Assembly: GCA_039922055.1 (NCBI GenBank)
Contig: JBDSAP010000065.1
Coordinates: 360 to 64,359, forward strand
From: Ferruginibacter sp.
GTDB lineage: Bacteria; Bacteroidota; Bacteroidia; Chitinophagales; Chitinophagaceae
DNA length: 64,000 bases
Reading direction: 5' to 3'
The notes beneath the pieces were generated by a model. The model saw only the letters and a program-made list of their open reading frames with translations. It was not told the origin of the DNA and did not search any database. The translations under genes and the position numbers were made by a program. Shown here in pieces: positions 3,373 to 37,381 of the stretch (position 1 is its first letter; the number at the start of each line of letters is the position of its first letter).

Positions 3373-3463
3373 TTGGTATATCCTTTTACATCTTCTATAA
3401 ACAAAATTTATTTCACACATACCTTGTTTGTGCTGCCTCGTTGGGCAATGTCATATGTTATAA

Positions 3464-4890: not shown

Positions 4891-4912
4891 ATTCTTTTTT
4901 GCTATGATTAAT

Positions 4913-6013
4913 TTATTGCAGTACAATTCGTTTTCCCTCCTTTGCAGACTTAGTCGCTGCTTCCAGTATCTTTACTACAACCAGGTTGTTTTCAAGAGAT
5001 GATAGATCATTCGCAGGCTTGATCTCTCCCGTTAACACTTTTGCCAAATAGGTAAGGTTATCCTTGTAGATCGCAGGCTTTACCACCGCCGTATCGTACG
5101 TGTTTTTATCTCTTTTAATTAAAGTCTTGCCATCTGTAGCATGCAGGTAACCGGTGGTCCCGAATAGTTCAAAATCCTTAATGCCAAAAGGCCAGTTCCA
5201 GGAAGCTTCTATTATACCAGTGGCCTCGGGGTATTCTAACAAAATAGTAGCTTCATCATCTACTTTAGGATACGCTGCCGGCTGAATATGTTTGGTGATA
5301 GCGGTAACAGCAATTGGCATTTTTCCATTCATCATCCACGTCATCAGGTTAGCTCCGTAACAACCAAAATCCATGACGGCGCCCCCTCCATTCATAACGG
5401 GATCTGTAAGCCAGCTAAGAAACTCCTTACTGCAACCAATTGCTTTAGGTCCCTGGTGGCCGGAATGAACGATCATCTTCCGCAGGTCACCGATCGCATG
5501 TTGCTCATGTGCAGTTTCATACACCTGCTGGTTACTGCTGTACCAGGTAGTCTCGTAATTGGTCAATACTTGTACATGATGTTGTGCCGCCAATGCAGCG
5601 ATGCGTTCTGCATCTTTTACCTTTGTTGCCAGGGGTTTCTCCACCATTACAGAAAGCCCCATTGGCGCACAGATCTCAACGACACCGAGGTGTTCGGAAG
5701 TTGCGTTGTAAGCCAGCACAACATCCGGTTTAACATGCTTCAGCAAATCAGTAAGTGATTTAAAAAAAATGGAATCGGGTAGCTCAGATTTCTTTTTATG
5801 CCGGTCTATCAATTGCTGATCTGTTTCGGCAATACCAACTATCAACACCTCTCCTCTTTTGTATTGCCCCAACAAACCATTTACATGATCATGCGTGAGG
5901 CCAGCTACCGCCACTTTTAAAATTTGCCCGTTAGAGATCATTGCTGATAACGCCAACACTGCGGCAAGAACAAGTTTGTTTGTATATTTTTTTTGAAGAA
6001 GAAAATTTTTCAT
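4913..6013 (-). CDS. exported Gfo/Idh/MocA family oxidoreductase
   Basis: Signal peptide MKNFLLQKKYTNKLVLAAVLALSAMISNGQ. N-terminal Rossmann strand KVAVAGLTHDH. The family's EKP motif is present (MVEKPLATK). Confidence 0.85.
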   Translation of the reverse strand: MKNFLLQKKYTNKLVLAAVLALSAMISNGQILKVAVAGLTHDHVNGLLGQYKRGEVLIVGIAETDQQLIDRHKKKSELPDSIFFKSLTDLLKHVKPDVVLAYNATSEHLGVVEICAPMGLSVMVEKPLATKVKDAERIAALAAQHHVQVLTNYETTWYSSNQQVYETAHEQHAIGDLRKMIVHSGHQGPKAIGCSKEFLSWLTDPVMNGGGAVMDFGCYGANLMTWMMNGKMPIAVTAITKHIQPAAYPKVDDEATILLEYPEATGIIEASWNWPFGIKDFELFGTTGYLHATDGKTLIKRDKNTYDTAVVKPAIYKDNLTYLAKVLTGEIKPANDLSSLENNLVVVKILEAATKSAKEGKRIVLQ

Positions 6014-6099
6014 TTATAGGTTAGTTTAATTGTAAGGTTAAAGAAAGTACCGACTTTGATGTAATGTATACGGAACATTTTTTTCGAACATAAATTCAC

Positions 6100-6335
6100 C
6101 CACTATACGTTCCTATGGAACGTTCTTTCCATTATCGTTTCTTCTACCCACCAAACATTCCTACGGAATGAATGTGATCAATTGCTTTTGACCGATCGAC
6201 TATTCAATTTATTTCCTTGTCGTAGGCGCTTTTTTTGTGCAATCACTTTCTTCTAAATCTCTCTTTTGTTCCGTAGGAACAATTGGTGGGTAGAAAAAAC
6301 AATTCAGTTGTATGCGTTCCGTAGGAACGCCTGGT
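6100..6335. repeat. inverted-repeat region carrying four 6-3-6 palindromes (GTTCC-NNN-GGAAC type)
   Basis: The four palindromes are CGTTCCtatGGAACG (6108-6122), CATTCCtacGGAATG (6156-6170), TGTTCCgtaGGAACA (6267-6281) and CGTTCCgtaGGAACG (6315-6329). TCTACCCACCA (6143-6153) is the inverse of TGGTGGGTAGA (6284-6294). The two halves are about 65-bp inverted copies of each other. Confidence 0.85.
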
Positions 6336-6401
6336 GCTAAAAAGATTGTTTGTAACAATGCACTTGTAGGATATTGATATTTGCTTTCATCGCAAATAAA
6401 A

Positions 6402-7268
6402 TTACTTCTTCAAATCTGCGTAACTGATCAACTGAATATTCCTGCGCCTGATTGCTTGCATCACCTCGGGACTTGTAAAAACATCTGTAACACCTTGCCT
6501 GTCTTCCGCAACATTTTCGTAACCGATATGATAGATCGCCCTCATCTCCGGGCCATCTAATGCCGGATGATCAACAAATAAATATGTCTCTCCGGGTTTT
6601 AAACTATCCAGCATATTGATAAAGCTTTTCACTTTTTCTGCGGCCGTAACATTCGGTCCTTTATAACCTATCCCTTTTACACCGATTGCTTTCAGATCAA
6701 TATCGATCTTATATTCCTTCACCAATTTTCTTACGAGATCCGAAACTGAATTATCCAGTTCAGTGCAACCCATGTGTGCAGATACATGGCTTATCCGTGG
6801 TATCTTTTTAATGGCAAGTTCAATCTGTGCCCTCAATTCTTTTTCCACTTCATCCAATTTCCACTCATGTTCTTTCAATGCTTTGCCGGTATAGTTTTTA
6901 TTTGGCCACAGCATCGGGTAAAAGTAACCACTACTATCAGTAAGACTGGGGCAATAAGTTAACGGCCGCCATTTTATTGTTTCCCATTCACTCGTCAAGG
7001 CGAGATGTACACCTACATCTGCATCCGGAATCTTCTCCAACAACTTTACCGCTTCAGGAAACCATGGCGATGGAACAAGTATTTCAATAGAACGCTCAAT
7101 TCCTTCCTTATAACACTTTACCAAAGCCTTATTACCCGCATGAGAAAAGCCCATATCATCGCCCCGTACAATCAAACGTGCTGCTTTCTCTTGTGCAGAT
7201 GCAGCCATAAAAATCATCATCAACCCAAACAGAAGAACAAGAACTTTATCTTTCATATTTCTACTCAT
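6402..7268 (-). CDS. exported ChbG/YdjC/HpnK-family carbohydrate deacetylase
   Basis: Signal peptide ...LLFGLMMIFMAASAQE. YdjC-type motifs LIVRGDDMGFSHAGN, GVHLALTSEW and HVSAHMG are present. Confidence 0.75.
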   Translation of the reverse strand: MSRNMKDKVLVLLFGLMMIFMAASAQEKAARLIVRGDDMGFSHAGNKALVKCYKEGIERSIEILVPSPWFPEAVKLLEKIPDADVGVHLALTSEWETIKWRPLTYCPSLTDSSGYFYPMLWPNKNYTGKALKEHEWKLDEVEKELRAQIELAIKKIPRISHVSAHMGCTELDNSVSDLVRKLVKEYKIDIDLKAIGVKGIGYKGPNVTAAEKVKSFINMLDSLKPGETYLFVDHPALDGPEMRAIYHIGYENVAEDRQGVTDVFTSPEVMQAIRRRNIQLISYADLKK

Positions 7269-7365
7269 TTTATAAGGTCATTTCCATCGTCAACCGAACG
7301 CCTCAACTGCAATCTTATTCTCCAAAAGTCCTTTCCTTTGGAGAGGATTTAGGTGAGGCCGCGTC

Positions 7366-8706
7366 TTACAACTTCATCTCCCAACCCTTTTCATATTCAC
7401 GCTTCCAAAGTTTCATTGCTTCTGCATCTTTTATATGGCCATTCGTTGGATCGCAGTAAAGCGTTTTACCCGTACGGTAAGCAATATTTCCCAACTGCGG
7501 CAGCAAGGTTGAAACATGACCAATTGAAATAGGACAATTCAATTTCGCTGTTCCTCTTACTGCGTTAATAAAATTCTCCAAATGTAGTCCATCCAACCGC
7601 TCACCCATACCAGTCGTGTTAGTGGGATCAACGATGGCTCCCATCGGGCTTTTCACTTCCTTGACAAGTTTGTTGTTCATGTCATAAATTTTATAATCAT
7701 CCCCACCGGGTATCACCATCGTTCCCGTTTCACCATAAAATATTGTGCCCCTTCCACTGCCTTCAGTATTATAATTATTACAACTCCTGCCTTCCCATGT
7801 AAAGGCTGTGTTGTTGGCAAATTCATAAGTACAGGTTTGTGTATCCGGGGTTTGCCAGTCATCTTTAAAATGAAAACGACCACCTGCCGAAACTACTTTC
7901 GTTGGATAATCTACACCCAACCCCCAACGCATCACATCCATCTCATGTGTGCCATTGTTCAATGCCTCCCCAGTGCCCCAGTTCCAGAACCAATGCCAGT
8001 TGTAATGCACAAGGTTATCCTGGTAAGGTTTGCGTGGCGCCGGCCCCTGCCATAGATCAAAATCAAGATTAGAAGGTGGTGCAATCAACTTGCCTGTGCC
8101 GATAGATTTCCTGTCATTGGTGTACCATCCCTTTGCAAAATAAACCCTGCCAATAACGCCTTCATGCAAAGCCTGCATAGCCTGCGTTACACCCGGAAAA
8201 GAGCGGCGCTGGCTTCCCATTTGAATCAGGCGATTGTATTGCTTTGCAGCGGCCACCAGCATTTCACCTTCTGCCGGATTATGTGAACAGGGCTTTTCCA
8301 AATACACTTCTTTACCAGCTTTTGCAGCAAGCAATGCCGCAGGCGCATGCCAGTGATCAGGCGTTGCTATTGCTACCGCATCCAAGTCCTTTTGCTCCAA
8401 CATCTTGCGCAGATCTCTAAATCCCTTTGGTTTTTTCCCCGTTTTCTTTTCGATCTCACCAATAGTTCTGTTCAGCACATTTTCATCCACGTCGCAGATA
8501 TATCCAACCTCCACATTAGCTATGCCGGCGAAAATTTTAGAAAGATATTCTCCCCGCCCGTTGGTGCCGATCATACCTATCACCACTTTTTCATTTGGAG
8601 ACCCATTAAAGGCGAACAAAGTAGAAAAGGGATTAGTGAGTGCCAAACCTGTCGTTGCCAATGCAGCCGACTTTAAAAAATTTCTGCGGTGAATTGATCT
8701 TTTCAT
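7366..8706 (-). CDS. Tat-exported Gfo/Idh/MocA family oxidoreductase
   Basis: Twin-arginine signal MKRSIHRRNFLKSAALATTGLALT. Rossmann strand VVIGMIGTNGRG. EKP motif YLEKPCSHN. Confidence 0.88.
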   Translation of the reverse strand: MKRSIHRRNFLKSAALATTGLALTNPFSTLFAFNGSPNEKVVIGMIGTNGRGEYLSKIFAGIANVEVGYICDVDENVLNRTIGEIEKKTGKKPKGFRDLRKMLEQKDLDAVAIATPDHWHAPAALLAAKAGKEVYLEKPCSHNPAEGEMLVAAAKQYNRLIQMGSQRRSFPGVTQAMQALHEGVIGRVYFAKGWYTNDRKSIGTGKLIAPPSNLDFDLWQGPAPRKPYQDNLVHYNWHWFWNWGTGEALNNGTHEMDVMRWGLGVDYPTKVVSAGGRFHFKDDWQTPDTQTCTYEFANNTAFTWEGRSCNNYNTEGSGRGTIFYGETGTMVIPGGDDYKIYDMNNKLVKEVKSPMGAIVDPTNTTGMGERLDGLHLENFINAVRGTAKLNCPISIGHVSTLLPQLGNIAYRTGKTLYCDPTNGHIKDAEAMKLWKREYEKGWEMKL

Positions 8707-8771
8707 ATTTGAGTTATTGATTTTAAACCAAGACTATTTTGAAAAATATTGATACAATTTTTTTTGTTTAT

Positions 8772-8844
8772 CAGCATTTGTTTTTCATAGCGGCATCGTT
8801 GTGTTATTCCAATTCCGATTTATCGGAACTCACTTGTACTACAT
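8772..8844 (+). repeat. dispersed TTTTTCAT-GC-CATCGTTG-GT...CACTTGTAC element, copy with internal hairpin insert
   Basis: CAGCATTTGTTTTTCATAGCGGCATCGTTGTGTT, then hairpin TTCCGAtttaTCGGAA, then CTCACTTGTACTACAT. It aligns with 13292-13345(rc), 17529-17571, 47634-47698 and 55455-55525(rc). Confidence 0.75.
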
Positions 8845-8994
8845 ACCATTGTGGAGCTTTGCCCATTATCTTGGCCTCACCTCCCTTCCTCCTCTCCCAA
8901 AGAGAGGAGGCGGTGCTTCATCTCTTTAATAAACATTATCACTTCCAAATCAACAGCAAATCATAACCGATCTTTCATCAGCAGAATATGTTTA

Positions 8995-9560
8995 GAAAAA
9001 GACTCTTGCCCTTTCTCCTCCCCTTGGGGGAGGCCAGGTGGGGCCACATCTCACCGCTCGTTCATCAGCAAAATATGTTCAGCACAAGACTCTTGCCCTA
9101 TCTCCTCCCCTTGGGGGAGGCCGGGTGGGGCCGCATCTTACCGATCTTTCACCAACAAAATATGTTTAGTACCAGGCTCTTCCCCTGTCCCCTCCCTTTG
9201 GGGGAGGCCGGGTGGGGCCACATCTTACCGATTTTCCACCAGCAAAATATCTTTAGTTACAAGACTCTTGCCTTTTCCCCTCCCCTTGGGGGAGGCCGGG
9301 TGGGGCCTTGTCTCTTACTCAGCAGAAGCTTTTAAATTAGTTTACTCTTGCCCTTTCTCCTTCCCTTCGGGGAGGCTGGGAGGGGCCGCATCTCACCCAT
9401 CCTTCCCCAGTAAAACATCTTTAGTTACAAGACTCTTGCCTTTTCCCTCCCCCATTGGGGAGGCCGGGTGGGGCCTTGTCGCTTACTCAGCAGAAGCTTT
9501 TAAATTAGTTTACTCTTGCCCTTTCCTCCTCCCCTTCGGGGAGGCCGGGAGGGGCCCGGC
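8995..9560 (+). repeat. REP-like array: 7 tandem copies of a GC-rich hairpin element (CCTCCCC-TTG-GGGGAGG-CCGGGTGGGGCC), period 80-89 bp
   Basis: Hairpin cores start near 9017, 9104, 9190, 9279, 9359, 9446 and 9526. A roughly 106-bp higher-order duplication links 9251-9356 and 9419-9524. A solo copy lies at 17777-17821, with diverged inverted relatives at 8888-8910 and 7329-7360. Confidence 0.9.
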
Positions 9561-10537
9561 TGATGCATGATACCCTCGTTAATAATTGACTGTACTATTT
9601 GATATGGTTGTTTTTCAATAATATAAAACTGGCCCTTCCCCTGATCGTTCCATGTATTACGTCCATCCTCCGCTACTTCTATTTTACCTTCCTTCAAACT
9701 ATACCATCGCTCATATCCTTTTATTGCGATCAATACAGCCGTCTCATCCCAACTGCTGCGGCCTGCGCTATCTTCTGCTGCCAGCGGAATACTGATCCTG
9801 AATGCGTCTTTTACAGGACTATTTTTGATAGCCCCGTTATTAATTAATGGTAATCCTGCTTTTATTTTTTTGCCAATTTCGAAGCCGCTTAAAATGACGG
9901 GTGTTTCCCAATTATCATAAACGATTTTCGACGCAGCCGCATCTTCTCTTACATTAAATTCATGCCCTTCCGGAAATTTACCTGCCATACAAACCAACAA
10001 CTTTACCTTCTTTTTTATCAATGCTTTTCCATCCAGCGCAGAATATCTATCGGGTTTGGATTGGTACAAATTAGCAAGGTTCGTTAGGAAACCCACCGTG
10101 ATGACCGTAACAGACCTATCAGGTTGGCCGGCTAATATTTTACGATACAGATCAACTGCATCGGGCACGTCATCATTGCTTTTTATTTTGTGCGGATAAT
10201 TTGCCAGCAAACTATCTGTCCAGTGCTGTGTATCTCTCAACTCAAGCGCTTTACCCCTGGGAACTGCGATAGGAATATTTGGCCGGCTAAAATAAGTATT
10301 GAACACATTGAATACCCCGGCCACACCCTGGTATTTTGTGCTTGCAATAGTGGCAAGTATTTTCGCCTGCCCGCTATCGGCATAAGCATGTAACATAGTA
10401 ATCGCTCCCACATCATCATAGTCGGGACCCATATCAGAATCAAAAATAACCGGAACAGTTTTGTTGGAAATTTTTTGCGCTTGCATGGAGAAACTAAATA
10501 GCAACACACAGGAAAACAGGAAGGATTTTATCAGCAT
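9500..10537 (-). CDS. exported inosine-uridine-preferring nucleoside hydrolase (IUNH)-family protein
   Basis: Signal peptide MLIKSFLFSCVLLFSFSMQAQK. N-terminal Asp cluster VIFDSDMGPDYDDVGAI matches the family's DxDxxxDD motif. The last approximately 22 aa (HQPGPSRPPRRGGGKGKSKLI) are encoded by REP copy 7. Confidence 0.75.
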   Translation of the reverse strand: MLIKSFLFSCVLLFSFSMQAQKISNKTVPVIFDSDMGPDYDDVGAITMLHAYADSGQAKILATIASTKYQGVAGVFNVFNTYFSRPNIPIAVPRGKALELRDTQHWTDSLLANYPHKIKSNDDVPDAVDLYRKILAGQPDRSVTVITVGFLTNLANLYQSKPDRYSALDGKALIKKKVKLLVCMAGKFPEGHEFNVREDAAASKIVYDNWETPVILSGFEIGKKIKAGLPLINNGAIKNSPVKDAFRISIPLAAEDSAGRSSWDETAVLIAIKGYERWYSLKEGKIEVAEDGRNTWNDQGKGQFYIIEKQPYQIVQSIINEGIMHQPGPSRPPRRGGGKGKSKLI

Positions 10538-10555
10538 GGCAATCGTTGAAATAGT

Positions 10556-11557
10556 TTATAAGCCCGAGTAAATTAGTAAACCTAATCCAATAATAAAAAA
10601 CAAAAACATGGCTGTAATTAATCCGCTGGTACCCTTCGGTGAATTTTTAAATTCTTTCCAAATAAAAACTCCCCAGAAAGCGGCTACCAATGTAGCACCC
10701 TGTCCGAGCCCATACGAAATTGCGGGACCTGCTTTTCCCGCCGCAATTAAATTAAATGAATTGCCAACACCCCATATCAGTCCCCCCAATACGCCTACTA
10801 AATGTGTTTTAAAACCTCCTTTAAAATAAGCAGCATAGCTGGTCGGCTCACCGGTAAAAGGTTTTTTAATAAGAATGCTGTTGAACACAAAGTTGCTAAG
10901 TAAAATACCTACAGAAAAAATGAACACAGCAGTGTAGGGAGTCATTTTACCGGCAGCAGGCTGGTGGAAATTTTCGAGGTCCATACTTACCGCAATAAAG
11001 CGATAAAAGAACGACATCAAAATACCACCGGCAATAGCAAGTACAATTCCTTTAGAGGAGACTTTACCTGCGCCGCTTGCTTTTCTCCTGTAAGCAATTG
11101 CGTTCAGCACAATAGCTGCGGCCACCAATATTGCACCGGCAAAAAGCGCCACCGGATCGCCTTTTTGAGCAGCCAGGTAATTGATGAATACGCCTAACAA
11201 TAACGCAATGCCAATGCCAATAGGGAAGGCCACCGACATACCTGCAATTGCAATAGCGGCAACCACTAAAATATTTGCCGCGTTAAAAATTATTCCACCC
11301 AATAAGGCACTGCCTATATTACTGCTGTCAGCCTGTTTCAGATCATTAATAAAACTTCTTCCCTCCTCACCCGTACTGCCCAATGTAAATGCACTAATCA
11401 ATGAGAACAATAAAATGCCGATCACATAGTCCCAATAAAACAATTCAAAGCGCCAGGTTTTTTCCGCAAGCTTTTGAGTATTAGCCCACGATCCCCAGCA
11501 AAGCATTGTGATGACGCAAAAAATAACAGCAACAGAATAATTTTCAATGATGAACAT
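10556..11557 (-). CDS. 10-TM DMT-superfamily sugar permease (GRP family, GlcU/RbsU-like)
   Basis: 333 aa, hydrophobic throughout, with two 5-TM halves. The N-terminus ...CWGSWANTQKL and a central charged loop (YRRKASGAGKVSSKG) are typical of GRP glucose/ribose uptake proteins. Confidence 0.65.
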   Translation of the reverse strand: MFIIENYSVAVIFCVITMLCWGSWANTQKLAEKTWRFELFYWDYVIGILLFSLISAFTLGSTGEEGRSFINDLKQADSSNIGSALLGGIIFNAANILVVAAIAIAGMSVAFPIGIGIALLLGVFINYLAAQKGDPVALFAGAILVAAAIVLNAIAYRRKASGAGKVSSKGIVLAIAGGILMSFFYRFIAVSMDLENFHQPAAGKMTPYTAVFIFSVGILLSNFVFNSILIKKPFTGEPTSYAAYFKGGFKTHLVGVLGGLIWGVGNSFNLIAAGKAGPAISYGLGQGATLVAAFWGVFIWKEFKNSPKGTSGLITAMFLFFIIGLGLLIYSGL

Positions 11558-11674
11558 GTTCGGTTGATTTAAGATTGAAAGGCATTTTGTTTAACATATT
11601 TGGCCACGATATCGATAAACCGACAGGCCCTCCATGATGAATAATTTTCGGGGGAGCCTTTTTTAGGCACTCCT

Positions 11675-13219
11675 TTATTTTTCATTTGCTAATAACCCAT
11701 TCACAGCCTCGTTGGAATAAACAATCACCTGTGCCGATTCGATTTGATGCTCCTGCGAAGGATTCAATAACTTAAATTTTACAGAATGTTTTCCTTTTGG
11801 CAGATCATACTTCCAGCATAGCTCATGACGGCGTGTGGTAAAATTTACAGGCAATGGAATTGCTTCCACCATTTTACCATCAATATACAATTCTGCATCA
11901 AAAACAAACCCCGATGTACTCGTCCATTTTGAGGCCCCTCCTCTTAAAACAAAACCGGTCCCTTCGAAATCAAAATTAATTTCATCCTTGCTGTCATTCC
12001 ATTTCACACCAGTTTTTGAAACCGGGTAAAGCCCCTTAAAACTCTTTTCAAATTTCACTAAAGCAGGTAGCTGCACTTTTATGGTAATGTTGTCGCCGCT
12101 TAGTTTTCCGCCATTTCTTTCTATGTTTTGAATGGCGTGTTTATAGCCGATGGCATACACATTTTCAAGGCTCATGGTGGTGTATTTAAAATCGATATCC
12201 TCTGCTTCTTTCAATCCCATCTTCCAGTAGGCAGGAATGTTTTCATAGCCTAAAACGGTTCCCAGTATTCCGCCTGCGGAAGATGGATTGCAATCCGCAT
12301 CCTGTCCGCATCGGGTGGTGATCTCCATTGTTTTTGTGAAGTCCCCACCGCCATACAACAAACCAATTGTTACATAAGCAGCATTTACTTTTGCATCAAT
12401 ATTAAACGGCACAAATACACCCTCAGGACAACCGATATCATCTGCCCATTTTTTTTGTACTTCCAGCCAGGTTTGCTTCCAGTCGTTTGGGTATTTTTTA
12501 TAAGAAATGATCACATCGTTGATGCATTGATAAAATTCACTTTGCTTAGGAATCGTCTTCAGCGCTTCGTTGATGATATAAGGAATATCTTTTGAAGTAA
12601 ATGCCAGTGTATACATAGCGCCAATATAAATACCTCCATACCAGCCATCGCCATAGTTCATAATATGTCCGATCTTATCACTGATCTGTGATGCTGTATT
12701 AGGCATGCCCGGACTCATCAAGCCTGCAAAGTCTGCCTCTATCTGGTAGTCGATACAATCCGCATGCGGGTTGTTGATCCAATGACCGCTTGCAGGCGCT
12801 TTTATACCATGCAGAATATTATAACGACCCGCCTGGTTCGCATGCCACAACATGTAGCCGGCATTTGCAAATGCATTGGCGAATGAATCAACAGGCGCAT
12901 CCAATCCATATTTTTCAAACACATCCACAAACGTTAGATCCATATACAAATCGTCATACAAGCCGGGATTATTGACCATGGTATTTTTTAAATAGCCGTC
13001 ATACCATTTCAACGGCTGGTAGTCGCCGATGAAAGTACCATTGAACTGAAACTCATAAGGCCCGCCAAATGTTACCCCAATCGTTTGACCAGCCCATCCT
13101 CCTTTTATCTTGCTTTTAAGTTGTTCTTGTGTAAGCGTTATTGTTTTACTTGTTTGTGCATATTGGCTCAATGCAATTAGCAGTATACCTGTTGTTACGA
13201 TCCATTTTTTAAAATCCAT
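11675..13219 (-). CDS. exported ADP-ribosylglycohydrolase (ARH/DraG)-family protein with a C-terminal extension of about 140 aa
   Basis: The likely start is M23 at 13219 (MDFKKWIVTTGILLIALSQYAQT signal peptide). ARH motifs GGWAGQTIGVTFGGPYEF and RCGQDADCNPSSAGGILG are present. A C-terminal beta-rich tail (GFVLRGG...LYIDGKMVE...) follows. Confidence 0.8.
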   Translation of the reverse strand: MDFKKWIVTTGILLIALSQYAQTSKTITLTQEQLKSKIKGGWAGQTIGVTFGGPYEFQFNGTFIGDYQPLKWYDGYLKNTMVNNPGLYDDLYMDLTFVDVFEKYGLDAPVDSFANAFANAGYMLWHANQAGRYNILHGIKAPASGHWINNPHADCIDYQIEADFAGLMSPGMPNTASQISDKIGHIMNYGDGWYGGIYIGAMYTLAFTSKDIPYIINEALKTIPKQSEFYQCINDVIISYKKYPNDWKQTWLEVQKKWADDIGCPEGVFVPFNIDAKVNAAYVTIGLLYGGGDFTKTMEITTRCGQDADCNPSSAGGILGTVLGYENIPAYWKMGLKEAEDIDFKYTTMSLENVYAIGYKHAIQNIERNGGKLSGDNITIKVQLPALVKFEKSFKGLYPVSKTGVKWNDSKDEINFDFEGTGFVLRGGASKWTSTSGFVFDAELYIDGKMVEAIPLPVNFTTRRHELCWKYDLPKGKHSVKFKLLNPSQEHQIESAQVIVYSNEAVNGLLANEK

Positions 13220-13291
13220 TTTTTTATTTTTTAATGACTGAAGTTGTAAGATAGTTGCCTGGAGCCTGGATTTTTTTTGTTCCACAAAGCT

Positions 13292-13345
13292 GTAAATGTA
13301 TAAGTGTGCGACGCAACGATGATGCCATGAAAAACAAATGCCCGG
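13292..13345 (-). repeat. dispersed TTTTTCATGGCATCATCGTTGCGTC...CACTTATAC element (best copy)
   Basis: The minus strand reads CCGGGCATTTGTTTTTCATGGCATCATCGTTGCGTCGCACACTTATACATTTAC. It sits in the 92-nt gap between the 2-hydroxyacid dehydrogenase stop and the long ARH ORF. Confidence 0.8.
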
Positions 13346-13377
13346 ACAAAAATATTTTCTAATTTAAATGACCTTGA

Positions 13378-14325
13378 TCAGGGATTAACAACATGCTGTG
13401 GTTTTCCTGCCAAAAACGCTTTTACATTTTCGATGGTGGTTTGCATCAACCGCTTTCTAGCTTCTTTGGTTATCCATGCGATGTGCGGCGTGATGATACA
13501 GTTTGGTAAACCGATCAATGGATTACCAGTTGGCGGAGGCTCCTGCCTTAATACATCCAATGCAGCAGCCAATAAAACTTTTTCCTTTAATGCTGCTGCA
13601 AGATCTTTTTCATTGATCAGTTGGCCCCTTGATGTATTTACTAAACAAGCAGTTGGTTTCATCAGCGACAGCAACGCTTTATTCACAAAGGAATCATTGT
13701 CTTTTGTAAGCGGGCAATGCAAGGAGATGTAATCACTTTGTGCAAAGAGCTCCTCCAAACTTACTGCTTTTGCCAATGTTGATTTTTTGCCTTTGTTATA
13801 AAATATCACCTGCATACCGAATGCTTTTGCGATCTCCGCAACTCTTTGTCCGATACGGCCAAAACCAACAATGCCGAGGGTTTTTCCACTGATCTCTGTG
13901 GTTGGTTGCAAGGTATAGCTCCAATCAGGAGATCGGCTCCATCCGCCATCAGACACGCTCTTTGCGTGAGCGCCTGTTTGGTTTGCAAGTTCAAGCAGCA
14001 GCGCAAATGTATGCTGTGCTACAGAATCAGTTCCATAAACCGGCACGTTGGAAACGATGATCCCTTTCTCCTTTGCAGTTACTGTATCAATCACATTATA
14101 ACCCGTTGCAGTAACGCTGATAAATTTAAGATTGCTACAGGAGTGTATGGTGGCGGCAGTTACAGGAGTTTTGTTGGTGATGATGATATCCGTATCCTTG
14201 CAATACTCGGCAACCGCTCCAGGTTGCATACGGTCAAAATATTTTACATCCCCAAGCCTATTGATCGCTTCCCAATCCAGGTCGCCGGGATTTAAAGTGT
14301 AGCCATCTGTAATTACTATTTGCAT
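13378..14325 (-). CDS. D-isomer-specific 2-hydroxyacid dehydrogenase (glycerate/hydroxypyruvate reductase-like)
   Basis: NAD-binding site GIVGFGRIGQRVA, plus NTSRG and the catalytic region ITPHIAW. The 315-aa length is typical. Confidence 0.88.
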   Translation of the reverse strand: MQIVITDGYTLNPGDLDWEAINRLGDVKYFDRMQPGAVAEYCKDTDIIITNKTPVTAATIHSCSNLKFISVTATGYNVIDTVTAKEKGIIVSNVPVYGTDSVAQHTFALLLELANQTGAHAKSVSDGGWSRSPDWSYTLQPTTEISGKTLGIVGFGRIGQRVAEIAKAFGMQVIFYNKGKKSTLAKAVSLEELFAQSDYISLHCPLTKDNDSFVNKALLSLMKPTACLVNTSRGQLINEKDLAAALKEKVLLAAALDVLRQEPPPTGNPLIGLPNCIITPHIAWITKEARKRLMQTTIENVKAFLAGKPQHVVNP

Positions 14326-14361
14326 AAGTTTCTGATCAATTTATTAGAAGAAACAGGTCAT

Positions 14362-17088
14362 TTATTGGGAAGAGATCACTGCAAGGCTTGTTGCATATTC
14401 AAAAACATAATCACCTGAGCCCACATTAAAAACCGTATTGCCATCCTGTTGTTTCACTTCGCCAAATTGATTACCAAGCGGTGAACCTCCCTCCATCACT
14501 TTATCCGGCTGAACAGAAGGGAGCGTAATTGTTGCCGTAGTATTTGCCGGTATACTTACCCTTACGATCAGTTTACCATCCCTCACCTCCCAGCCTGATG
14601 CGATCTTGCCGTATGCGCTTTCAAATCCAGCCTTTGCATAAGTAAGTCTTTTGGTAGGATGCGGCTGGATCAAAATATGTTTATACCCCGGCTCGCCAAT
14701 CTCAATACCGGCCACTACCCTATACATCCAGTCTCCAATGGCGCCGTAAGCATAATGGTTAAAAGAATTCATACCCACATCCTGGAAGGTGCTGTCTGTT
14801 TTTTGCCCATCCCATCTTTCCCAAATGGTAGTTGCACCCATTTTTACGGGGTATAACCAGGATGGAAAAGTTTCCTGGAGCAACAGATCGTAAGCCACAT
14901 CAGTACGACCATTTTTCGTAAGCACATGACACAAATAAGGAGTTCCAAGAAAACCGGTTGAAAGATGATTGTCTCTTCCCTTAATATCATCCACCAGGTA
15001 CTGCGTTGCTTTCGCCCTCAGGTTTTCAGGCAGCAAATCAAACATCAATGACAATACATATCCTGTTTGAGATTCAGCAGTAACGTGCCCTTCAGCCGTT
15101 ACATAATTCTTATTGAAGGCTTCTTTTATCTTTTCAAAAAGGTCGTTGTAAAACTTTTCATCATCTTTTTTGCCTAATACCGCGGCAGTATTTGCCAGCA
15201 ACTTTGTGGAGTATGCATAAAAAGTAGTAGCGATCATATCAGGATTGGTATAGCCATCATTCTCTGTCTGGTTCATAGATTTATAAAACAACCAGTCACC
15301 AAAAACACTTCCGCCTTTCCATATATAACTACCGCCCGCTTTTTTGTGGATGTACTCTACATAAGCCTTCATACTTGGATATTGTGTCTCCAAAATTCTT
15401 TTATCGCCATACACCTGGTAGATCGTCCACGGCGCAATGGTAGACACATCGCCCCAACCAGCCGAAGTGCTTTTATTCCCCAGCACATCGGGAATTACAA
15501 AAGGTACTTTTCCATCACCGTCCTGGTCTGCTGCAAGGTCCTTTAGCCACTTGGTAAAAAAAGCAGCAACATCCATATTGAAAGCTGCCGTGCGAACAAA
15601 CGCCTGTGCATCTCCCGTCCAGCCAAGTCGCTCATCCCGTTGCGGACAATCCGTCGGCACATCCACAAAGTTGCCCTTTTGCCCCCATTGAATATTATGT
15701 TGTAATTGATTCAACAACTGGTTAGAGCTTTCAAATGTACCCGTAGGTTCCATTTCAGAATGAACCACGACACCGATAATATTTTCTGGTTTTAATTCAC
15801 CGGGATAACCATCAACAGCCACATAACGAAACCCAAAGAAAGTAAACCTCGGCTCATAAGTTTCTTCTTCGCCACCTTTCAATAAATATTTTGCTGTTGC
15901 CGTTGCAGCCCTCAAATTATCCGTGTAAAATTCACCATATTTATCCAGCACTTCTGCATGACGGATCGTTACCACTGTGCCGGCGGCACCCTTCACTTTC
16001 AGTCGAATCCATCCTACCATATTCTGCCCCATGTCCACAACTAATGTACCCTTGGGCGTACGAAATACTTTTATCGCTTTCAGTTCCTGTATCTTTCTAA
16101 CGGGAACTGTTTGAGTAGCTACTAAAATATTTTTTGATTGATTGGCGGTATTCACAGCTTTCCATTTACTATCATCAAAACGGGCATTGCTCCACCCCTT
16201 CATTTCTTTGCGTGCGTCATAAGTTTCACCATCATAAATACCATCGAGTATAATAGGCCCATCCTGCGTACTCTTCCATGTATTATCTGTAACCACCAGT
16301 TGCTCGGTACCATCATCAAAGGTTAAACGCAATTGGCATAAAAGGCCCAATGTTTTGCCCCATAAGCCAAAATTACTAACCCATCCAAGTGTACCCCGAT
16401 ACCAGCCATCCGCCAGCATCGCACCCACAACATTACTACCCTGTTGTACAAGATTAGTAATGTCGTACACCTGGTATTGTAAACGTTTATTGTAACTGGT
16501 CCAGCCCGGCGTCAGCACCTGGTCGCCCACTTTTTTTCCATTAATGTATAATTCATAAAAACCATGACTTGTTACATAAGCTCTTGCTGCAACAATTTTC
16601 TTTGGAGCAGAAAAATCTTTACGCAACAAAATCGCCGGCTGTTTAGGTATCGTATCCTGCACCGGTTCTATCCAGGTAGCCTGCCATTCTCCAGGTTTCA
16701 ACAGGCCGGTTTCAAAAAATGCTGCCTCGCTCCAGGCAGATTCTTTATTGGCTTTGTCCCAAACCTTTACCTGCCAGAAATACCGCTGGCCAGATTTCAC
16801 AGCATTGCCATTATAAGGCTGAAGCACTGACTCATCAGAAGCCTGCTTACCCGATTGCCACACAAGCGATTTTTTAGAAAAATCCTTATCTGTTGCTACC
16901 CGGATATCGTAAGCGGTTTGCAGTATATTTCTGCCAGTGCCTTTTAACTTCCAGCTAAACCTCGGCTGTGCCGCACCAATGCCTACCGGATTTATTTTGT
17001 GTTCACATGAAAGGTCGTACACAGTTAATTTCTGAGCCACCCCTGCATGCGCAAGCAACATCAACAAAGCAATCTTTAGTAATTTCAT
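14362..17088 (-). CDS. alpha-L-rhamnosidase, GH78 (copy 1)
   Basis: The likely start is M18 at 17088 (MKLLKIALLMLLAHAGVAQ). The track start at 17139 lies inside a repeat. Motifs PRFSWKL, FFGFRYV and DCPQRDERLGWTGD are present, and the approximately 900-aa architecture fits. Confidence 0.9.
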   Translation of the reverse strand: MKLLKIALLMLLAHAGVAQKLTVYDLSCEHKINPVGIGAAQPRFSWKLKGTGRNILQTAYDIRVATDKDFSKKSLVWQSGKQASDESVLQPYNGNAVKSGQRYFWQVKVWDKANKESAWSEAAFFETGLLKPGEWQATWIEPVQDTIPKQPAILLRKDFSAPKKIVAARAYVTSHGFYELYINGKKVGDQVLTPGWTSYNKRLQYQVYDITNLVQQGSNVVGAMLADGWYRGTLGWVSNFGLWGKTLGLLCQLRLTFDDGTEQLVVTDNTWKSTQDGPIILDGIYDGETYDARKEMKGWSNARFDDSKWKAVNTANQSKNILVATQTVPVRKIQELKAIKVFRTPKGTLVVDMGQNMVGWIRLKVKGAAGTVVTIRHAEVLDKYGEFYTDNLRAATATAKYLLKGGEEETYEPRFTFFGFRYVAVDGYPGELKPENIIGVVVHSEMEPTGTFESSNQLLNQLQHNIQWGQKGNFVDVPTDCPQRDERLGWTGDAQAFVRTAAFNMDVAAFFTKWLKDLAADQDGDGKVPFVIPDVLGNKSTSAGWGDVSTIAPWTIYQVYGDKRILETQYPSMKAYVEYIHKKAGGSYIWKGGSVFGDWLFYKSMNQTENDGYTNPDMIATTFYAYSTKLLANTAAVLGKKDDEKFYNDLFEKIKEAFNKNYVTAEGHVTAESQTGYVLSLMFDLLPENLRAKATQYLVDDIKGRDNHLSTGFLGTPYLCHVLTKNGRTDVAYDLLLQETFPSWLYPVKMGATTIWERWDGQKTDSTFQDVGMNSFNHYAYGAIGDWMYRVVAGIEIGEPGYKHILIQPHPTKRLTYAKAGFESAYGKIASGWEVRDGKLIVRVSIPANTTATITLPSVQPDKVMEGGSPLGNQFGEVKQQDGNTVFNVGSGDYVFEYATSLAVISSQ

Positions 17089-17116
17089 AATAGATTTTTT
17101 TGGTAAATATTTATTT

Positions 17117-17514
17117 GCCACGAATGCACGAATGAACACGAATATATTTTATTTTATTTTTCGGTTTGATTCATTCTCCTGTGCAATTAGATAGTCAAAA
17201 AATATTGTGCCCATTCGTGACATTTCTTTATAAAAGCAATTCCTGCTCTTTTTCATTGGCAAAGCAATTCGTGTCTATTCGTGTATTCGTGGCATTTCTT
17301 TACAAAAGCAATTCGTGTCGATTCGTGCATTCGTGGCATTTCTTTATAAAAGCAATTCGTGTCTATTCGTGTATTCGTGGCATTTCTTTACAAAACAAAT
17401 TCGTGCCCATTCGTGCATTCGTGGCGTTTCCTTAGCAAACAAATTCGTGTCCATTCGTGCATTTGTGGCGTTTCCTTAACAAAACAAATTCGTGTTCATT
17501 CGTGCATTCGTGGC
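17117..17514. repeat. 398-bp foldback element: perfect 27-bp terminal inverted repeats enclosing a 44-bp tandem array (6 full units plus degenerate ones) of triple ATTCGTG heptads
   Basis: 17117-17143 (GCCACGAATGCACGAATGAACACGAAT) is the exact reverse complement of 17488-17514. Unit starts are at 17267, 17311, 17355, 17399, 17443 and 17488. The unit is ATTCGTGtctATTCGTGyATTCGTGGCatttctttayaaaagca. Confidence 0.92.
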
Positions 17515-17528
17515 ATATATTTTTGATA

Positions 17529-17571
17529 CCGGGCATTTGTTTTTTATAGCATCATCGTTGTGTCACAGTAC
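17529..17571 (+). repeat. dispersed TTTTT(C)AT-GCATCATCGTTGTGTC element copy
   Basis: CCGGGCATTTGTTTTTTATAGCATCATCGTTGTGTCACAGTAC. A degenerate inverted relative lies at 17890-17917 (GTACAAGAGGGCGATGCGACGATGTTCC). Confidence 0.75.
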
Positions 17572-17776
17572 TTTCATCGCCATACCTTTGGGGATCTTTT
17601 CCCACCATATATTTAACCCAACATATTCAGCGGCCGCTTGCACATAATAGACTTTTCCTTTCATTGTTTTAAATGAATATACTTGCGGCACGAATACAAT
17701 TCGTAAAAATATCTTTTATCAAGCAATATCGCTGGTTAATGAGCACCTGCAAATCAGCGAGCAACTTTTATCATCC

Positions 17777-17821
17777 TACTCTTGTCTTTCCTCCTCCCCT
17801 TGGGGGAGGCCGGGTGGGGCC
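17777..17821 (+). repeat. solo REP-like hairpin element (same family as 8995-9560)
   Basis: ACTCTTGTCTTTCCTCCTCCCCTTGGGGGAGGCCGGGTGGGGCC. Confidence 0.85.
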
Positions 17822-17955
17822 AAGCCGGCTACTCAGCACACATTTACTATCATTAGACTTTTGTCTTTTTGCTCCCCAAAGCTTTTTTTGTACAAGAGGG
17901 CGATGCGACGATGTTCCTTTATATTCTACCGCCCGGGCCCTTGATATTCTTTATA

Positions 17956-19173
17956 TCATTTCTTCCACAGATTCTTTGTTCTTAGTGGAAGGCCGGGTAG
18001 TTGTGGCAAAGTGGAAACCGGTTTATCCAAATAAAAATAGGCGGTTGCAGACACATCATCTGACCGGTAAAAGTTGGAAAAACCTTCGGGCAAACCGGGC
18101 GTATCGAGTATTAAAAGACTATCTTTTTTATAATAAGGATGTATCTTTTTTTGATCATCAATGGCGACTGGTATCAATGGCACGCCCTTCTTTTGCAATT
18201 GGCTGACGAGGCCTTTCCGGTTGCCTCCCATCTGTTGTAATGTAACGCGGCAATCGGTTTTAAAAAAGATCGGGTCAGGAATATGATAGCGGTAAAATGC
18301 CCAGCCGCTGCTATCTGTATTTGCAAAAAGGCAGCCTGTGTAATCGTTGTGAAATTCACCCTGCCCCCAGCCTGTGCCAATATAATCTTCAGCACCAGTA
18401 CCAACCAGCGTCGGAAACTCCTTATCTCCATCAAGAAACATTTTTACTTCACCTTCGCCCCACCAATATTGTTCATAAATGGGATTGGCTTTGATGCCGA
18501 TATTTACGCCGAGGAATCTGCCTTTACCATTAACACGGGGAAGCAATTCATAGTCCTTCGCCAACTCTGTAGCGGTATCGCGGTTCCAATATGCATGCAA
18601 ATACATATTGCCGGGATTCCATTTTTCAACACGCTGAAAATCTACATCAAAGAAAAGATGGCTCAGGCGTTTGCCGGATTCATTGGTGACCTGTATACGG
18701 GCCGCCTTTTTAAATGGCATCGGAATATAACAGATAAAGGATCGTCCTTCGGGATTACCAAATAAAGCATTGTTGTATTTAGCAGTTTTTCCTAAACCCA
18801 TTCCAAAAAAATCACCAAAGGGGACTGACACGGCTGGCTTTTTTTCATCATCCCAAAACATTTCCAGCTTAAGAGAACGCAGCATTTCGGGTGAACGATC
18901 CATGATGGTTACCCATATCCTGTTGATAATACCCTGCCCTTTTACATTTAATAGCACCTCTGTTTCTCCGGCCTCTACACCATCTGAAGGATGACCTTTA
19001 GCGCCATTATTTTCCATGCCGCCTTTTCCTTTTTCAGCAGTGATATTTTCGAAACTGCTCCAGCGTGGACTGAGGTTTGGATCAAATTCAAATATGGGTT
19101 TTGCTGAATTAAGTTGTGCATTGGCCATGAAGCAAAAAAAGCTACAACCTGCTGCCAATAAAATATTTCTCAT
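17956..19173 (-). CDS. exported DUF2961 / GH172-family protein (furanoside-active family)
   Basis: Signal peptide MRNILLAAGCSFFCFMANAQ. The hallmark YWWGEGEVKMFLDGDKEFPTLVGTGAEDYIGTGWG is present. Confidence 0.8.
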   Translation of the reverse strand: MRNILLAAGCSFFCFMANAQLNSAKPIFEFDPNLSPRWSSFENITAEKGKGGMENNGAKGHPSDGVEAGETEVLLNVKGQGIINRIWVTIMDRSPEMLRSLKLEMFWDDEKKPAVSVPFGDFFGMGLGKTAKYNNALFGNPEGRSFICYIPMPFKKAARIQVTNESGKRLSHLFFDVDFQRVEKWNPGNMYLHAYWNRDTATELAKDYELLPRVNGKGRFLGVNIGIKANPIYEQYWWGEGEVKMFLDGDKEFPTLVGTGAEDYIGTGWGQGEFHNDYTGCLFANTDSSGWAFYRYHIPDPIFFKTDCRVTLQQMGGNRKGLVSQLQKKGVPLIPVAIDDQKKIHPYYKKDSLLILDTPGLPEGFSNFYRSDDVSATAYFYLDKPVSTLPQLPGLPLRTKNLWKK

Positions 19174-20565: not shown

Positions 20566-20881
20566 AAGTGTTGAATGTTTATAGCCATTTAATCTTTTAC
20601 ATAGTTTTGCAATCGTCTGAAACAATTATAAAATTATCTTTTAAAACTGAACTATAATGCCGTACTGTACTGGTAAGATTATATTCTTTGTCGGGAGAAT
20701 TATTCGTAACGCTTAGCAGCATACGAAGTGGCAATAAACCATCAACAAATTAATTTATGAAAATCGTTATAAAACGAACCGTCGAAAAACTGAGCAACTA
20801 ATGCAATAAGATGTAGGAATAATGCCAATAGTAACCAGGTGTTTGTAACTGAAGAAAAGCGACACAAATAAATACGGTGCT

Positions 20882-24481: not shown

Positions 24482-24533
24482 TCTTAATAATAATTTTTTA
24501 GAGCAATATTTATTCCCGGTCTTTTCCTTATAG

Positions 24534-24674
24534 TAAACAAGGGATAAAATAATGAACAATTTTTTTGAACCCAGCAGAAGTTTTTCAATTAAGCTTCATT
24601 GGCGTCGCACTCTTATACATTTTATCAATAAGGAGCACAATACCAGGTAACTAATTTATTCCTTTCGCTGTATA
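24534..24674. repeat. 142-bp conserved intergenic element, copy 2 of 3
   Basis: See 3464-3606. This copy lies 53 nt upstream of the VCBS lipoprotein ATG (24481). Confidence 0.9.
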
Positions 24675-27643: not shown

Positions 27644-27728
27644 GATCTTAAATAAAAATTGATACAACGATTTCAACTAACATTCACTGGTCACTCGTTG
27701 CTCATTATTGTTATGCAATATATTGTAG

Positions 27729-32976: not shown

Positions 32977-33276
32977 TTTAGCGTTAGGTAAATATGAATT
33001 CCGGAGTGACGTCTTATGGGAGTCCACCATAAATTCAAACGTAATATAGAAGTACTTAAATGTTTTCCTGTACTGTACTATGCTGAATGGAGTTAAATAT
33101 TCTAAAGGTTTTCTCAGTGGCCCAAACGAATCTGAACCAATATATTATTCGTTTAAAAGACAGCAATAACCGGGATAAAAAAATTAGAAGGGAAGAATAA
33201 TCTGGCAGGATTGTAACCGTCGGAGAGGAAAATATTATTCTAAAAAATTGCAACTCAATGCCCAAATAAGAGCAAT

Positions 33277-37297: not shown

Positions 37298-37381
37298 GCC
37301 ATTTATAGTTAAGGAACATTGGCCGTTATAACGTAGTTTGCCGTGCATGGTATTTTTTTTACTTTGCAGCAATATTATTAC

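Follow-up and report, generated by a model that had tools for sequence, protein, structure and literature searches.

The DNA considered here is a 64,000-nucleotide (64 kb) stretch of a Ferruginibacter sp. contig, hereafter the window, to which all coordinates given without a locus name refer. Its minus strand encodes, side by side, an ADP-ribosylglycohydrolase (ARH) family protein, a putative sugar permease and a nucleoside hydrolase of the IUNH family, and these three genes, situated at the tail of a polysaccharide utilization locus (PUL), are the subject of this analysis. Gene and domain calls relied on the list of open reading frames (ORFs) together with Pfam and NCBIfam scans of the window proteins. 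The ARH-family protein comprises 514 residues (11675-13219; PF03747), the GRP/DMT-type permease 333 residues (10556-11557; PF07168 and PF06800), and the IUNH-family ORF 345 residues (9500-10537; PF01156). They are preceded on the same strand by a cytoplasmic D-2-hydroxyacid dehydrogenase (2-HADH; 13378-14325; PF02826 and PF00389), which has no signal peptide, and by GH78a, an alpha-L-rhamnosidase of glycoside hydrolase (GH) family 78 (14362-17139) in which all five GH78 Pfam domains were found. In the order GH78a, 2-HADH, ARH, permease and IUNH, the intergenic gaps measure 36, 158, 117 and 18 bp, and GH78a is the first gene of a probable transcription unit running to IUNH. A preliminary description of this DNA had placed the three genes at the same positions, on one strand with short gaps and behind the 2-HADH and GH78 genes, and the motifs it quoted from them were likewise found to be correct.

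Two probably exported hydrolases and a permease

The longest form of the ARH ORF begins with a GTG at 13285; homologues favour the ATG at 13219. These homologues number more than 7600, the closest being 74-80% identical and ~510-520 residues long. The catalytic domain (12230-13102, residues 40-330) matches PF03747 (ADP_ribosyl_GH) with 115.9 bits against a cut-off of 26.2 (E 3.7e-33) and covers profile positions 1-286 of 287. Its putative di-metal ligands, E56, D89-D90 and D307-A-D309-C310, align with the Glu, (T)DD and GDTDT motifs of Escherichia coli YegU, DraG and MJ1187, and the pattern E56, D89-D90, D307-x-D309-C310 is invariant among 40 homologues, with Cys310 occupying the usual position of a metal-binding Thr. 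Judged by these alignments, the window ARH looks catalytically intact, and the possibility of a pseudoenzyme, which the preliminary description had singled out for checking, does not apply to it or to the IUNH protein.

Searches against the Protein Data Bank (PDB) were of little help at the sequence level: a single-sequence phmmer search with the ARH protein gave no match to any PDB chain, and the family profile gave matches of 55 residues only, the best of them, a weak one, to the Tri1-type ADP-ribosyl hydrolase 6dre (E 0.0028). The structural assignment therefore required a comparison of folds. In Foldseek, the protein's AlphaFold model (pLDDT 72.8; several loops score under 50) pairs with ARH3, with DraG and with 2yzw, an ARH-related protein of Thermus, at a probability of 1.0 and TMt values of 0.5-0.7, and it displays the all-alpha ARH fold. 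ARH3 cleaves alpha-ribosyl O-glycosidic bonds, including the ribose-ribose bonds of poly-ADP-ribose. The window protein has in common with ARH3, DraG and Tri1 both this fold and the Glu, Asp-Asp and Asp-x-Asp di-metal ligands, whereas it differs from these cytoplasmic or nuclear enzymes, to which it is only ~11-15% identical, in its predicted Sec-dependent export, in the Cys that replaces the metal-binding Thr, in an extra C-terminal beta-sandwich, and in belonging to a clade that is found in operons with a sugar kinase and a permease and that includes multi-modular secreted proteins. The preliminary description had noted the C-terminal module as beta-rich, and strands are indeed modelled over ~residues 372-502 (11714-12106). 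This module has no significant Pfam or NCBIfam match, a Pfam scan of the module by itself returning only a sub-threshold DUF7152, and its Foldseek matches to the carbohydrate-binding module (CBM) CBM36 (1w0n) and to a CBM35-containing CITase are weak (E ~4.5e-3, TMt 0.47); going by the model, a CBM-like role is possible.

The IUNH-family protein matches PF01156 (IU_nuc_hydro) with 60.8 bits against a cut-off of 34.2 (E 2.2e-16). Its AlphaFold model (pLDDT 84.5) has the nucleoside hydrolase fold and superposes on YeiK, RihA, the IU-NH enzyme and the plant NRh with E values of ~1e-12 and TMt values of ~0.7. Despite an identity of 24% to RihA, the Ca2+ and ribose ligands of that enzyme correspond to D35, D41, D42, T152, E193-F-N195 and D264, all invariant in 39 homologues. 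The protein thus shares the fold, the Ca2+ ligands and the ribose-binding residues with the group I enzymes E. coli RihA, YeiK and Crithidia IU-NH, but departs from them in three respects. It carries a signal peptide; its motif DSDMGPDYDD (D33-S-D35-MG-P-D39-Y-D41-D42) corresponds to DXDXXXDD with a two-residue insertion; and the catalytic His239 of RihA, the histidine expected of group I, is replaced by Trp263, which is invariant in the same homologues. Since the ligands are kept while the His serving the leaving group has become Trp, the scaffold would appear to be that of an intact ribosyl hydrolase whose aglycone pocket differs. The purine-specific IAG-NH class uses aromatic stacking, and the Trp in place of His recalls that class. 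The ORF exists as first described, but its last ~18 codons (9500-9556) run into a repeat array: the tail PGPSRPPRRGGGKGKSKLI, read from the first repeat, is missing in the homologues, which end near residue 327.

Signal peptides had been proposed for both hydrolases, and they were judged by sequence heuristics, namely a basic N-region, a hydrophobic core, a cleavage site and conservation across homologues. In the ARH protein, residues 1-21 (13157-13219, minus strand) combine a K/R N-region with a hydrophobic core, with predicted cleavage at SQYA|QT, and the IUNH protein has a corresponding peptide in residues 1-20 (10478-10537, minus strand), with predicted cleavage at SMQA|QK. The proposal gained support from the homologues: the hydrophobic core is present in 40/40 of those of ARH and 39/39 of those of IUNH, an AQ site falls within the first 32 residues in 30/40 and 31/39, respectively, and Q22 of ARH and Q21 of IUNH are nearly invariant; alignments show that the N-terminal extension is absent from the cytoplasmic E. 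coli RihA and YegU. The A|Q junction of both enzymes fits the Bacteroidetes 'Q-rule', by which Gln becomes N-terminal after cleavage in signal peptidase I substrates (PMC5837995). Neither protein has a Por_Secre_tail or a lipobox Cys at the junction, and both were therefore rejected as cargo of the type IX secretion system (T9SS) and as lipoproteins; a soluble periplasmic location, suggested by the conserved signal peptides, is the most likely one for both.

The permease matches PF07168 (Ureide_permease; 87.9 bits, cut-off 27, E 7.5e-25) and PF06800 (Sugar_transport; 32.6 bits, cut-off 26.3, E 7e-8). It had been described as having ten transmembrane segments, of which eight are strongly hydrophobic and stand, while the two weaker ones are only probable. 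Its homologues are named 'glucose uptake protein' by JGI, a label they share with the RusT homologues in a published survey discussed below, and the window permease is 88% identical to the permeases of operons that combine a PfkB-family kinase, an ARH gene and a permease. By Pfam architecture, product name and operon partners it is a candidate RusT-like permease.

Conserved partners and the two blocks

For the neighbourhoods of ARH orthologues, contigs representing one genome per species were searched, 597 of 599 candidate ARH stretches were confirmed, and 80 loci with 64-77% identity and flanks of 10 kb were kept. They derive from Chitinophagaceae, Cytophagales (Spirosoma, Emticicia, Chryseolinea, Ohtaekwangia and Hymenobacter), Mucilaginibacter (Sphingobacteriales) and a metagenome-assembled genome of Flavobacteriaceae. 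All ORFs within 8 kb of the ARH gene were clustered without bias, and two subsets were considered separately: 41 loci whose flanks reach at least 8 kb in either direction (fully flanked) and 70 loci with both immediate flanks. Two neighbour families dominate. The permease occurs in 39/80 loci, in 38 of them as the next gene downstream of ARH (median gap 49 bp), and a 306-residue PfkB protein, likewise found in 39/80, is the next gene upstream in 38 (median gap 102 bp). With 352 bits against a cut-off of 299.65, this PfkB protein qualifies as a ribokinase by the equivalog model TIGR02152, and because this ribokinase is directly upstream of ARH in so many loci, ribose is the most likely imported sugar. 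The fully flanked loci contain ribokinase in 27 cases, permease in 24, IUNH in 10, GH172 in 4, GH78 in 3 and SusC in 0; the earlier proposal that a pentose is released and imported is thus well supported, with ribose as the pentose. Among the 70 loci, 23 have the arrangement ribokinase-ARH-permease, 6 have ARH-permease only and 7 ribokinase-ARH only. The conserved core is ribokinase-ARH-permease, and the link between ARH and this permease is a real one. Homologues of the 2-HADH occur in the flanks of 2/80 loci and never directly upstream.

The IUNH gene behaves differently. In a survey of 80 soil-metagenome IUNH loci (63-72% identity), the flanks reached at least 4 kb in both directions in 21, and among these the permease is adjacent in 3 and ARH in 1, so that IUNH was rejected as an obligate partner of ARH. 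Many of the IUNH loci have a housekeeping context (ABC transporter, DnaJ/GrpE, Ppx), as in Mucilaginibacter gotjawali, and in 9 a GFO oxidoreductase with a signal peptide precedes IUNH. The preliminary description had presented ARH, permease and IUNH as one unit, which does not hold in view of IUNH occurring in 10/41 fully flanked ARH loci and ARH in 1/21 IUNH loci.

Three loci from relatives explain how the window arrangement is composed (identities are to the window proteins). One of them, L083, has GH78a (73%), IUNH (69%), YdjC (67%), GFO (69%), NagX-like (76%), GH78b (70%) and GH172; another, L167, has GH78a (81%), ARH (77%), YdjC (74%) and GFO (68%); and a third, L169, from the same assembly as L083, has apionate lactonase, GH172, GH116, ribokinase, ARH (71%), permease (88%), GH3, GH172, GH130 and GH140. 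The window order is GH78a, then 2-HADH, ARH and permease, then IUNH, then a repeat array with a GFO oxidoreductase bearing a twin-arginine translocation (TAT) signal, and finally YdjC, GFO and NagX-like. Written as a block GH78-X-YdjC-GFO-NagX-like, X is IUNH in L083 (7199-17251) and 2-HADH-ARH-permease-IUNH in the window (3778-17139), and in L167 (6-5875) ARH fills the slot after GH78a and is followed by YdjC and GFO. IUNH therefore belongs to a second block, GH78-IUNH-YdjC-GFO-NagX-like, and the window 'trio' straddles the junction between two conserved blocks, the 2-HADH-ARH-permease segment appearing to have been spliced into the GH78/GH140/GH172 cluster between GH78a and IUNH. The exact window arrangement is idiosyncratic, and the window may be described as a rearranged variant without a kinase, at a site that in relatives is taken by IUNH or ARH alone. 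That either hydrolase can fill the slot after GH78a nevertheless argues for a real functional connection of either ribosyl hydrolase with the GH78/YdjC/GFO/NagX-like set in this lineage. In L169 (1709-17683), the flanking of ribokinase-ARH-permease by a protein with an apionate-lactonase domain, two GH172, GH116, GH3, GH130 and GH140 hints at a link of the cassette to apiose or other furanoside metabolism.

The genes from GH78a to IUNH are bracketed by hairpin repeats. At the IUNH end lies a tandem array of GC-rich hairpin repeats (8966-9556) of ~590 bp, with a period of 87 bp, ~6 copies and Tandem Repeats Finder scores of 540-665; upstream of GH78a a single copy (17793-17810) lies in a ~0.8-kb gap that separates this gene from GH172. 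The repeat core CCTCCCCTTSGGGGAGGC occurs in 7 copies in the window versus 0 expected, and the unit has a 7-bp GC stem, CCTCCCC...GGGGAGG. An Rfam scan of 8600-18100 gave no match, and because the units fold no better than shuffles (z ~ -0.6), no role as terminators is claimed for them. A 239-residue plus-strand ORF across the array (8851-9570) was rejected as a gene, being a translation artefact. A scan of the same 8600-18100 region for sigma-70 promoters and terminators gave counts equal to the shuffled expectation, with a consensus that is wrong for Bacteroidota, and it is therefore uninformative on operon boundaries.

The cassette lies in a minus-strand run of co-directional genes that spans ~34.8 kb down to ~3.8 kb of the window, and the order of a PUL is recognizable in it, since SusC and SusD are followed on one strand by two GH78 genes, GH140 and GH172. 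Pfam places SusC at 29698-33030, SusD at 28152-29681, the second GH78 gene (GH78b) at 24881-27676, a 1225-residue FG-GAP/ASPIC protein at 20882-24559, a GH140 protein of the Pfam 'Apiosidase' family at 19216-20625 and GH172/DUF2961 at 17956-19173, all on the minus strand. The SusC/D pair is thus ~15 kb upstream of the cassette on the same strand, with six genes and the ~0.8-kb repeat-containing gap between them. Beyond IUNH follow, again on the minus strand and by Pfam/NCBIfam, the TAT-signal GFO/IDH/MocA oxidoreductase (7366-8706), an exported YdjC deacetylase-like protein (6402-7268), a second, exported GFO oxidoreductase (4913-6013) and a NagX-like membrane acetyltransferase (3778-4926). 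The TAT-GFO protein is similar to glycoside 3-dehydrogenases of the BT_2158 family, although its 148 bits fall well short of the equivalog threshold of 750. The opposite strand carries, upstream of the PUL (37343-41231), a histidine kinase with Reg_prop/Y_Y_Y domains and a LytTR response regulator as candidate regulators, and no RusR-like or LacI-type regulator was identified in the window. At 184-3420, on the minus strand, a 1078-residue M43 (pappalysin-like) metallopeptidase with PKD domains and a CHU_C T9SS sorting domain is apparently unrelated to the cassette.

The association with PUL genes recurs elsewhere. Gene families of the window PUL are found beside ARH orthologues in eight of the other loci (L010, L011, L018, L021, L033, L043, L073 and L169), and across the 80 loci GH172 occurs in 7, FG-GAP in 5 and GH78 in 4, so that the proposed linkage to carbohydrate-active enzymes (CAZymes) is real but a minority pattern. 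The linkage of the cassette to SusC/D fared worse: in a more sensitive phmmer pass, a SusC-like protein was found within 8 kb of 5/80 ARH loci and SusD near 3/80. These figures understate the linkage to PULs, because flanks of 10 kb would miss the window's own pair at 15 kb. The preliminary description had itself named a trio without conserved linkage to SusC/D or CAZyme genes as the outcome that would speak against it, and, since the trio is not conserved and SusC/D are rarely near ARH loci, this is largely what emerged.

Several other neighbours of ARH orthologues deserve mention. An exported protein of 395 residues (cluster C6; for instance L053, 2677-3864) lies directly downstream of ARH in 7/80 loci, with a median gap of 94 bp, and has no NCBIfam match. 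A DUF6786 protein of ~410 residues adjoins GH172 or ARH in three loci (L011, 7196-8446; L073, 541-1776; L083, ~20762-20996) and lies directly upstream of ARH in a fourth (L168, 8751-9986). Periplasmic oxidoreductases (GFO, PQQ/cytochrome c, GSDH/cytochrome c, GMC) recur near ARH orthologues, as do xylose-isomerase-like TIM barrels (L001, L011, L073 and L168), and this recurrence suggests a theme of oxidative deglycosylation.

A probable ribose-scavenging cassette and its alternatives

When these observations are put together, the cassette is best read as a kinase-less variant of the published Rus type, in which a periplasmic ARH-like and a periplasmic IUNH-like enzyme free ribose, a RusT-like permease imports it, and the ribokinase is encoded elsewhere in the genome; we put the probability of this reading at roughly 0.55. 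ARH and the permease would form the core of the cassette, with IUNH as an accessory second ribosyl hydrolase. Both enzymes would be exported to the periplasm by the Sec pathway and signal peptidase I, as their conserved signal peptides indicate, and would hydrolyse ribofuranosyl bonds there, the substrate class being suggested by their families. ARH would take alpha-linked O- or N-ribosyl conjugates, possibly oligosaccharide fragments that the adjacent SusC/D-GH78-GH140-GH172 system may supply, and IUNH would take beta-ribosides, both anomers being assigned from family chemistry only. Free ribose would then be imported by the permease, a step to which the conserved operon partners and the published genetics of Bacteroides thetaiotaomicron both point, and would be phosphorylated by a ribokinase encoded outside the 64-kb window in this genome.

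The comparison rests on the Rus study of Glowacki et al., which was reportedly published later in Cell Host Microbe in 2020. The prototype rus locus of B. thetaiotaomicron (BT2802-09) comprises rusR, rusK1/K2, rusC/D, rusGH, rusNH and rusT (Glowacki et al., bioRxiv 10.1101/574913). Its deletion abolishes growth of this species on ribose, deletion of rusT impairs growth, and eight rus-like loci are induced 100-1000-fold by ribose (bioRxiv 10.1101/574913). RusNH (BT2808) cleaves pNP-beta-D-ribofuranoside, and nucleosides weakly, and is apparently periplasmic (bioRxiv 10.1101/574913), which speaks against the earlier statement that characterised IUNH enzymes are cytoplasmic. Across the phylum at least 70 rus configurations are found, with variable enzymes that include ADP-ribosylglycohydrolases (ADP-RGH), nucleoside hydrolases and at least 22 GH families; an ADP-RGH of B. 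xylanisolvens served as a search query, and Table S5 lists ADP-RGH proteins aligned over ~500-535 residues beside a ribokinase and/or a 'glucose uptake protein', among others in Chitinophagaceae PMP191F, Spirosoma linguale, Hymenobacter terrenus and B. ovatus (bioRxiv 10.1101/574913). Some Rus loci carry two ARH paralogues. RusGH (BT2807) was considered as an ARH homologue and rejected, its homologues being annotated as BNR-repeat proteins in Table S5.

Like the window, with its candidate RusT-like permease and its probably exported IUNH-family protein, these systems have a GRP-type 'glucose uptake protein' permease (RusT) and an exported IUNH-family hydrolase (RusNH), and many Rus variants place an ADP-RGH of ~500-535 residues beside ribokinase and permease. 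For the IUNH homologues in the listed Chitinophagales rus loci, identity to RusNH is only ~30%. In contrast to Rus loci, which have one or two ribokinases, the window has none, nor an identifiable RusR; the 2-HADH gene occupies the position where relatives carry the ribokinase; and the cassette seems to have no SusC/D of its own, sitting instead at the tail of the GH78/GH140/GH172/FG-GAP PUL. Because the mechanism proposed in the preliminary description matches the published Rus concept, in which ADP-RGH, nucleoside hydrolase, RusT and ribokinase are already combined, its claim of an undescribed type of PUL module is unjustified: that Bacteroidota scavenge ribose, and that Rus loci can include ADP-RGH genes, is already in the literature, and the locus is not a new kind of system.

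Several points weigh against this reading. A tblastn search with the ribokinase of a neighbouring locus (E<=10) found no ribokinase in the 64-kb window, and neither kinase nor permease adjoins ARH in 34 of the 70 loci with both immediate flanks. IUNH orthologues mostly lie elsewhere in the genome, and several ARH orthologues sit among GH172, GH140, GH116, GH130 and apionate lactonase genes that are unrelated to ribose. The best Pfam match of the permease is to Ureide_permease, and it falls short of the NCBIfam RhaT/GlcU model TIGR00776 (45.6 bits against a cut-off of 319.6). Confidence in the ARH model is moderate, and no assay of an exported ARH was found in the searchable literature. The activities of RusNH and RusGH are weak, and neither protein is required for growth on ribose (bioRxiv 10.1101/574913).

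The alternative that withstands the evidence best, though we consider it improbable, is a stand-alone periplasmic salvage of small diffusible ribosides (nucleosides, nicotinamide riboside, compounds derived from NAD or ADP-ribose, cytokinin ribosides) with no functional tie to the PUL, the position of the genes being an accident of rearrangement between repeats. The bracketing of the unit by repeat elements would accord with such an accident, as would the very different contexts seen in the closest relatives, the absence of SusC/D within 8-10 kb of most ARH loci (0/41 fully flanked, 5/80 overall with a SusC-like protein) and the minimal ribokinase-ARH-permease operon in 23/70. The match of the permease to a ureide/nucleobase family points in the same direction, and an analogous operon of E. 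coli K-12, yegTUV (NC_000913.3, 2178821-2182061; L166), likewise unites a transporter (yegT), an ARH-family protein (yegU) and a PfkB kinase (yegV). The E. coli trio is, however, a cytoplasmic version: YegU lacks both signal peptide and C-terminal module, and the transporter belongs to a different family. A purely accidental position is also less easily reconciled with the GH78a orthologue standing directly before ARH in L167 and before IUNH in L083, or with the co-occurrence of ARH with GH172, FG-GAP and GH78 genes in several families. Moreover, ARH is fused to FG-GAP in a cluster of 27 members, and the beta-sandwich, PKD, LamG and CBM32-like modules of the clade are typical of enzymes that act on polymers.

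Less likely again is that ARH and IUNH are furanosidases for a non-ribose sugar of the PUL (D-apiofuranose, D-arabinofuranose or fructofuranose), which the permease would import, the ribokinase of other loci then reflecting a different use within the clade. The window cluster contains GH140, of the 'Apiosidase' family, and GH172, but no ribokinase, and in L169 ribokinase-ARH-permease stands between apionate lactonase/GH172 and GH3-GH172-GH130-GH140. GH172-IUNH-ARH recurs in two loci (L019, L025) and GH172-ARH in three (L004, L011, L073), and members of the clade are fused to GH43, GH32N, GH92 and GH106 domains. Yet the gene that most often adjoins ARH within its orthologous group (64-80% identity) encodes a genuine ribokinase by the equivalog model, both families are defined by ribosyl chemistry, with the ribose-binding Asp and Asn invariant in IUNH, and Pfam and NCBIfam scans found no genes for apiose or arabinose catabolism in the window. 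That ARH is a true de-ADP-ribosylating enzyme of the envelope, reversing for example the toxins of competitors in the manner of Tri1 or DraG, with permease and IUNH as unrelated neighbours, is hardly credible, because the weak profile match to Tri1-type 6dre and the structural proximity of ARH3 and DraG are set against a conserved operon with ribokinase and sugar permease, the lack of any ADP-ribosyltransferase or toxin gene found near ARH, the fusion of the clade to CAZyme-type modules, its own Cys-for-Thr signature, and a similarity to characterised ARHs too low for phmmer to match any PDB chain.

The exported ARH clade

Whichever sugar is released, the window ARH belongs to a large clade, for which an exhaustive search among 1.84 billion representatives gave 3342 clusters with E<=1e-3, of which 480 reach E<=1e-30. 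Among the best 150 representative clusters, 50 are at least 600 residues long, and all 50 keep the ARH domain, to which are added PKD (26), Laminin_G_3 (6), F5/8 type C (4), T9SS tails (2), esterase (2) and GH43 (2), with single cases of GH106, GH92, a GH84-like NAGidase, GH32N and FG-GAP. In these longer members the C-terminal beta-sandwich is replaced by PKD, LamG, F5/8-C or other modules. The fusions to GH92, GH84-like and GH43 domains are singletons and could be assembly artefacts; the members of the ARH-FG-GAP fusion cluster come from independent Bacteroidaceae and Prevotellaceae assemblies, and a 2390-residue ARH-LamG-PKD-FIVAR protein is encoded by the cultured clostridial species Ligaoa zhengdingensis. 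Such modular fusions are the architecture expected of secreted carbohydrate-active enzymes, and they echo the FG-GAP and rhamnosidase neighbours in the window. The earlier suggestion that ARH acts as a glycosidase is strengthened accordingly by the joining of the clade to PKD, LamG, F5/8-C, GH43, GH92, GH106 and FG-GAP.

The catalytic signature is likewise retained in most of the clade. Of the same best 150 clusters, 109 cover all sites, and 99 of these keep E/DD/DxD, 97 with Cys for Thr. The remaining ten, ~500 residues long including the beta-sandwich, lack the Glu, Asp-Asp and Asp-x-Asp residues (representatives P0260, P0261, P0264, P0266, P0287, P0291, P0304, P0339, P0374 and P0385) and may be pseudoenzymes that act as binding proteins.

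The ARH-fold proteins described to date are, to our knowledge, all intracellular enzymes of de-ADP-ribosylation, and the exported clade makes a plausible candidate for a glycosidase family not yet recognised as such. We advance only tentatively the more specific idea that the E/DD/DxDC clade is a metal-dependent GH family of ARH fold which cleaves ribofuranosyl or other furanosyl linkages in extracytoplasmic glycans and glycosides; if so, the window ARH would work with GH78, GH140 and GH172 on a polymer containing rhamnose and furanose, for example a bacterial surface polysaccharide. The clade is exported, strongly conserved (64-80% identity across orders), tied to ribose uptake and in many cases joined to modules of CAZyme type, and the window, where ARH is embedded in a cluster of rhamnosidase/apiosidase type, offers a natural test case. 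The substrate of ARH would show which environmental ribosyl compounds, be they glycans, nucleotides or cofactors, feed soil and gut Bacteroidota, and the clade could bring the glycoside hydrolases a catalytic scaffold that they have lacked.

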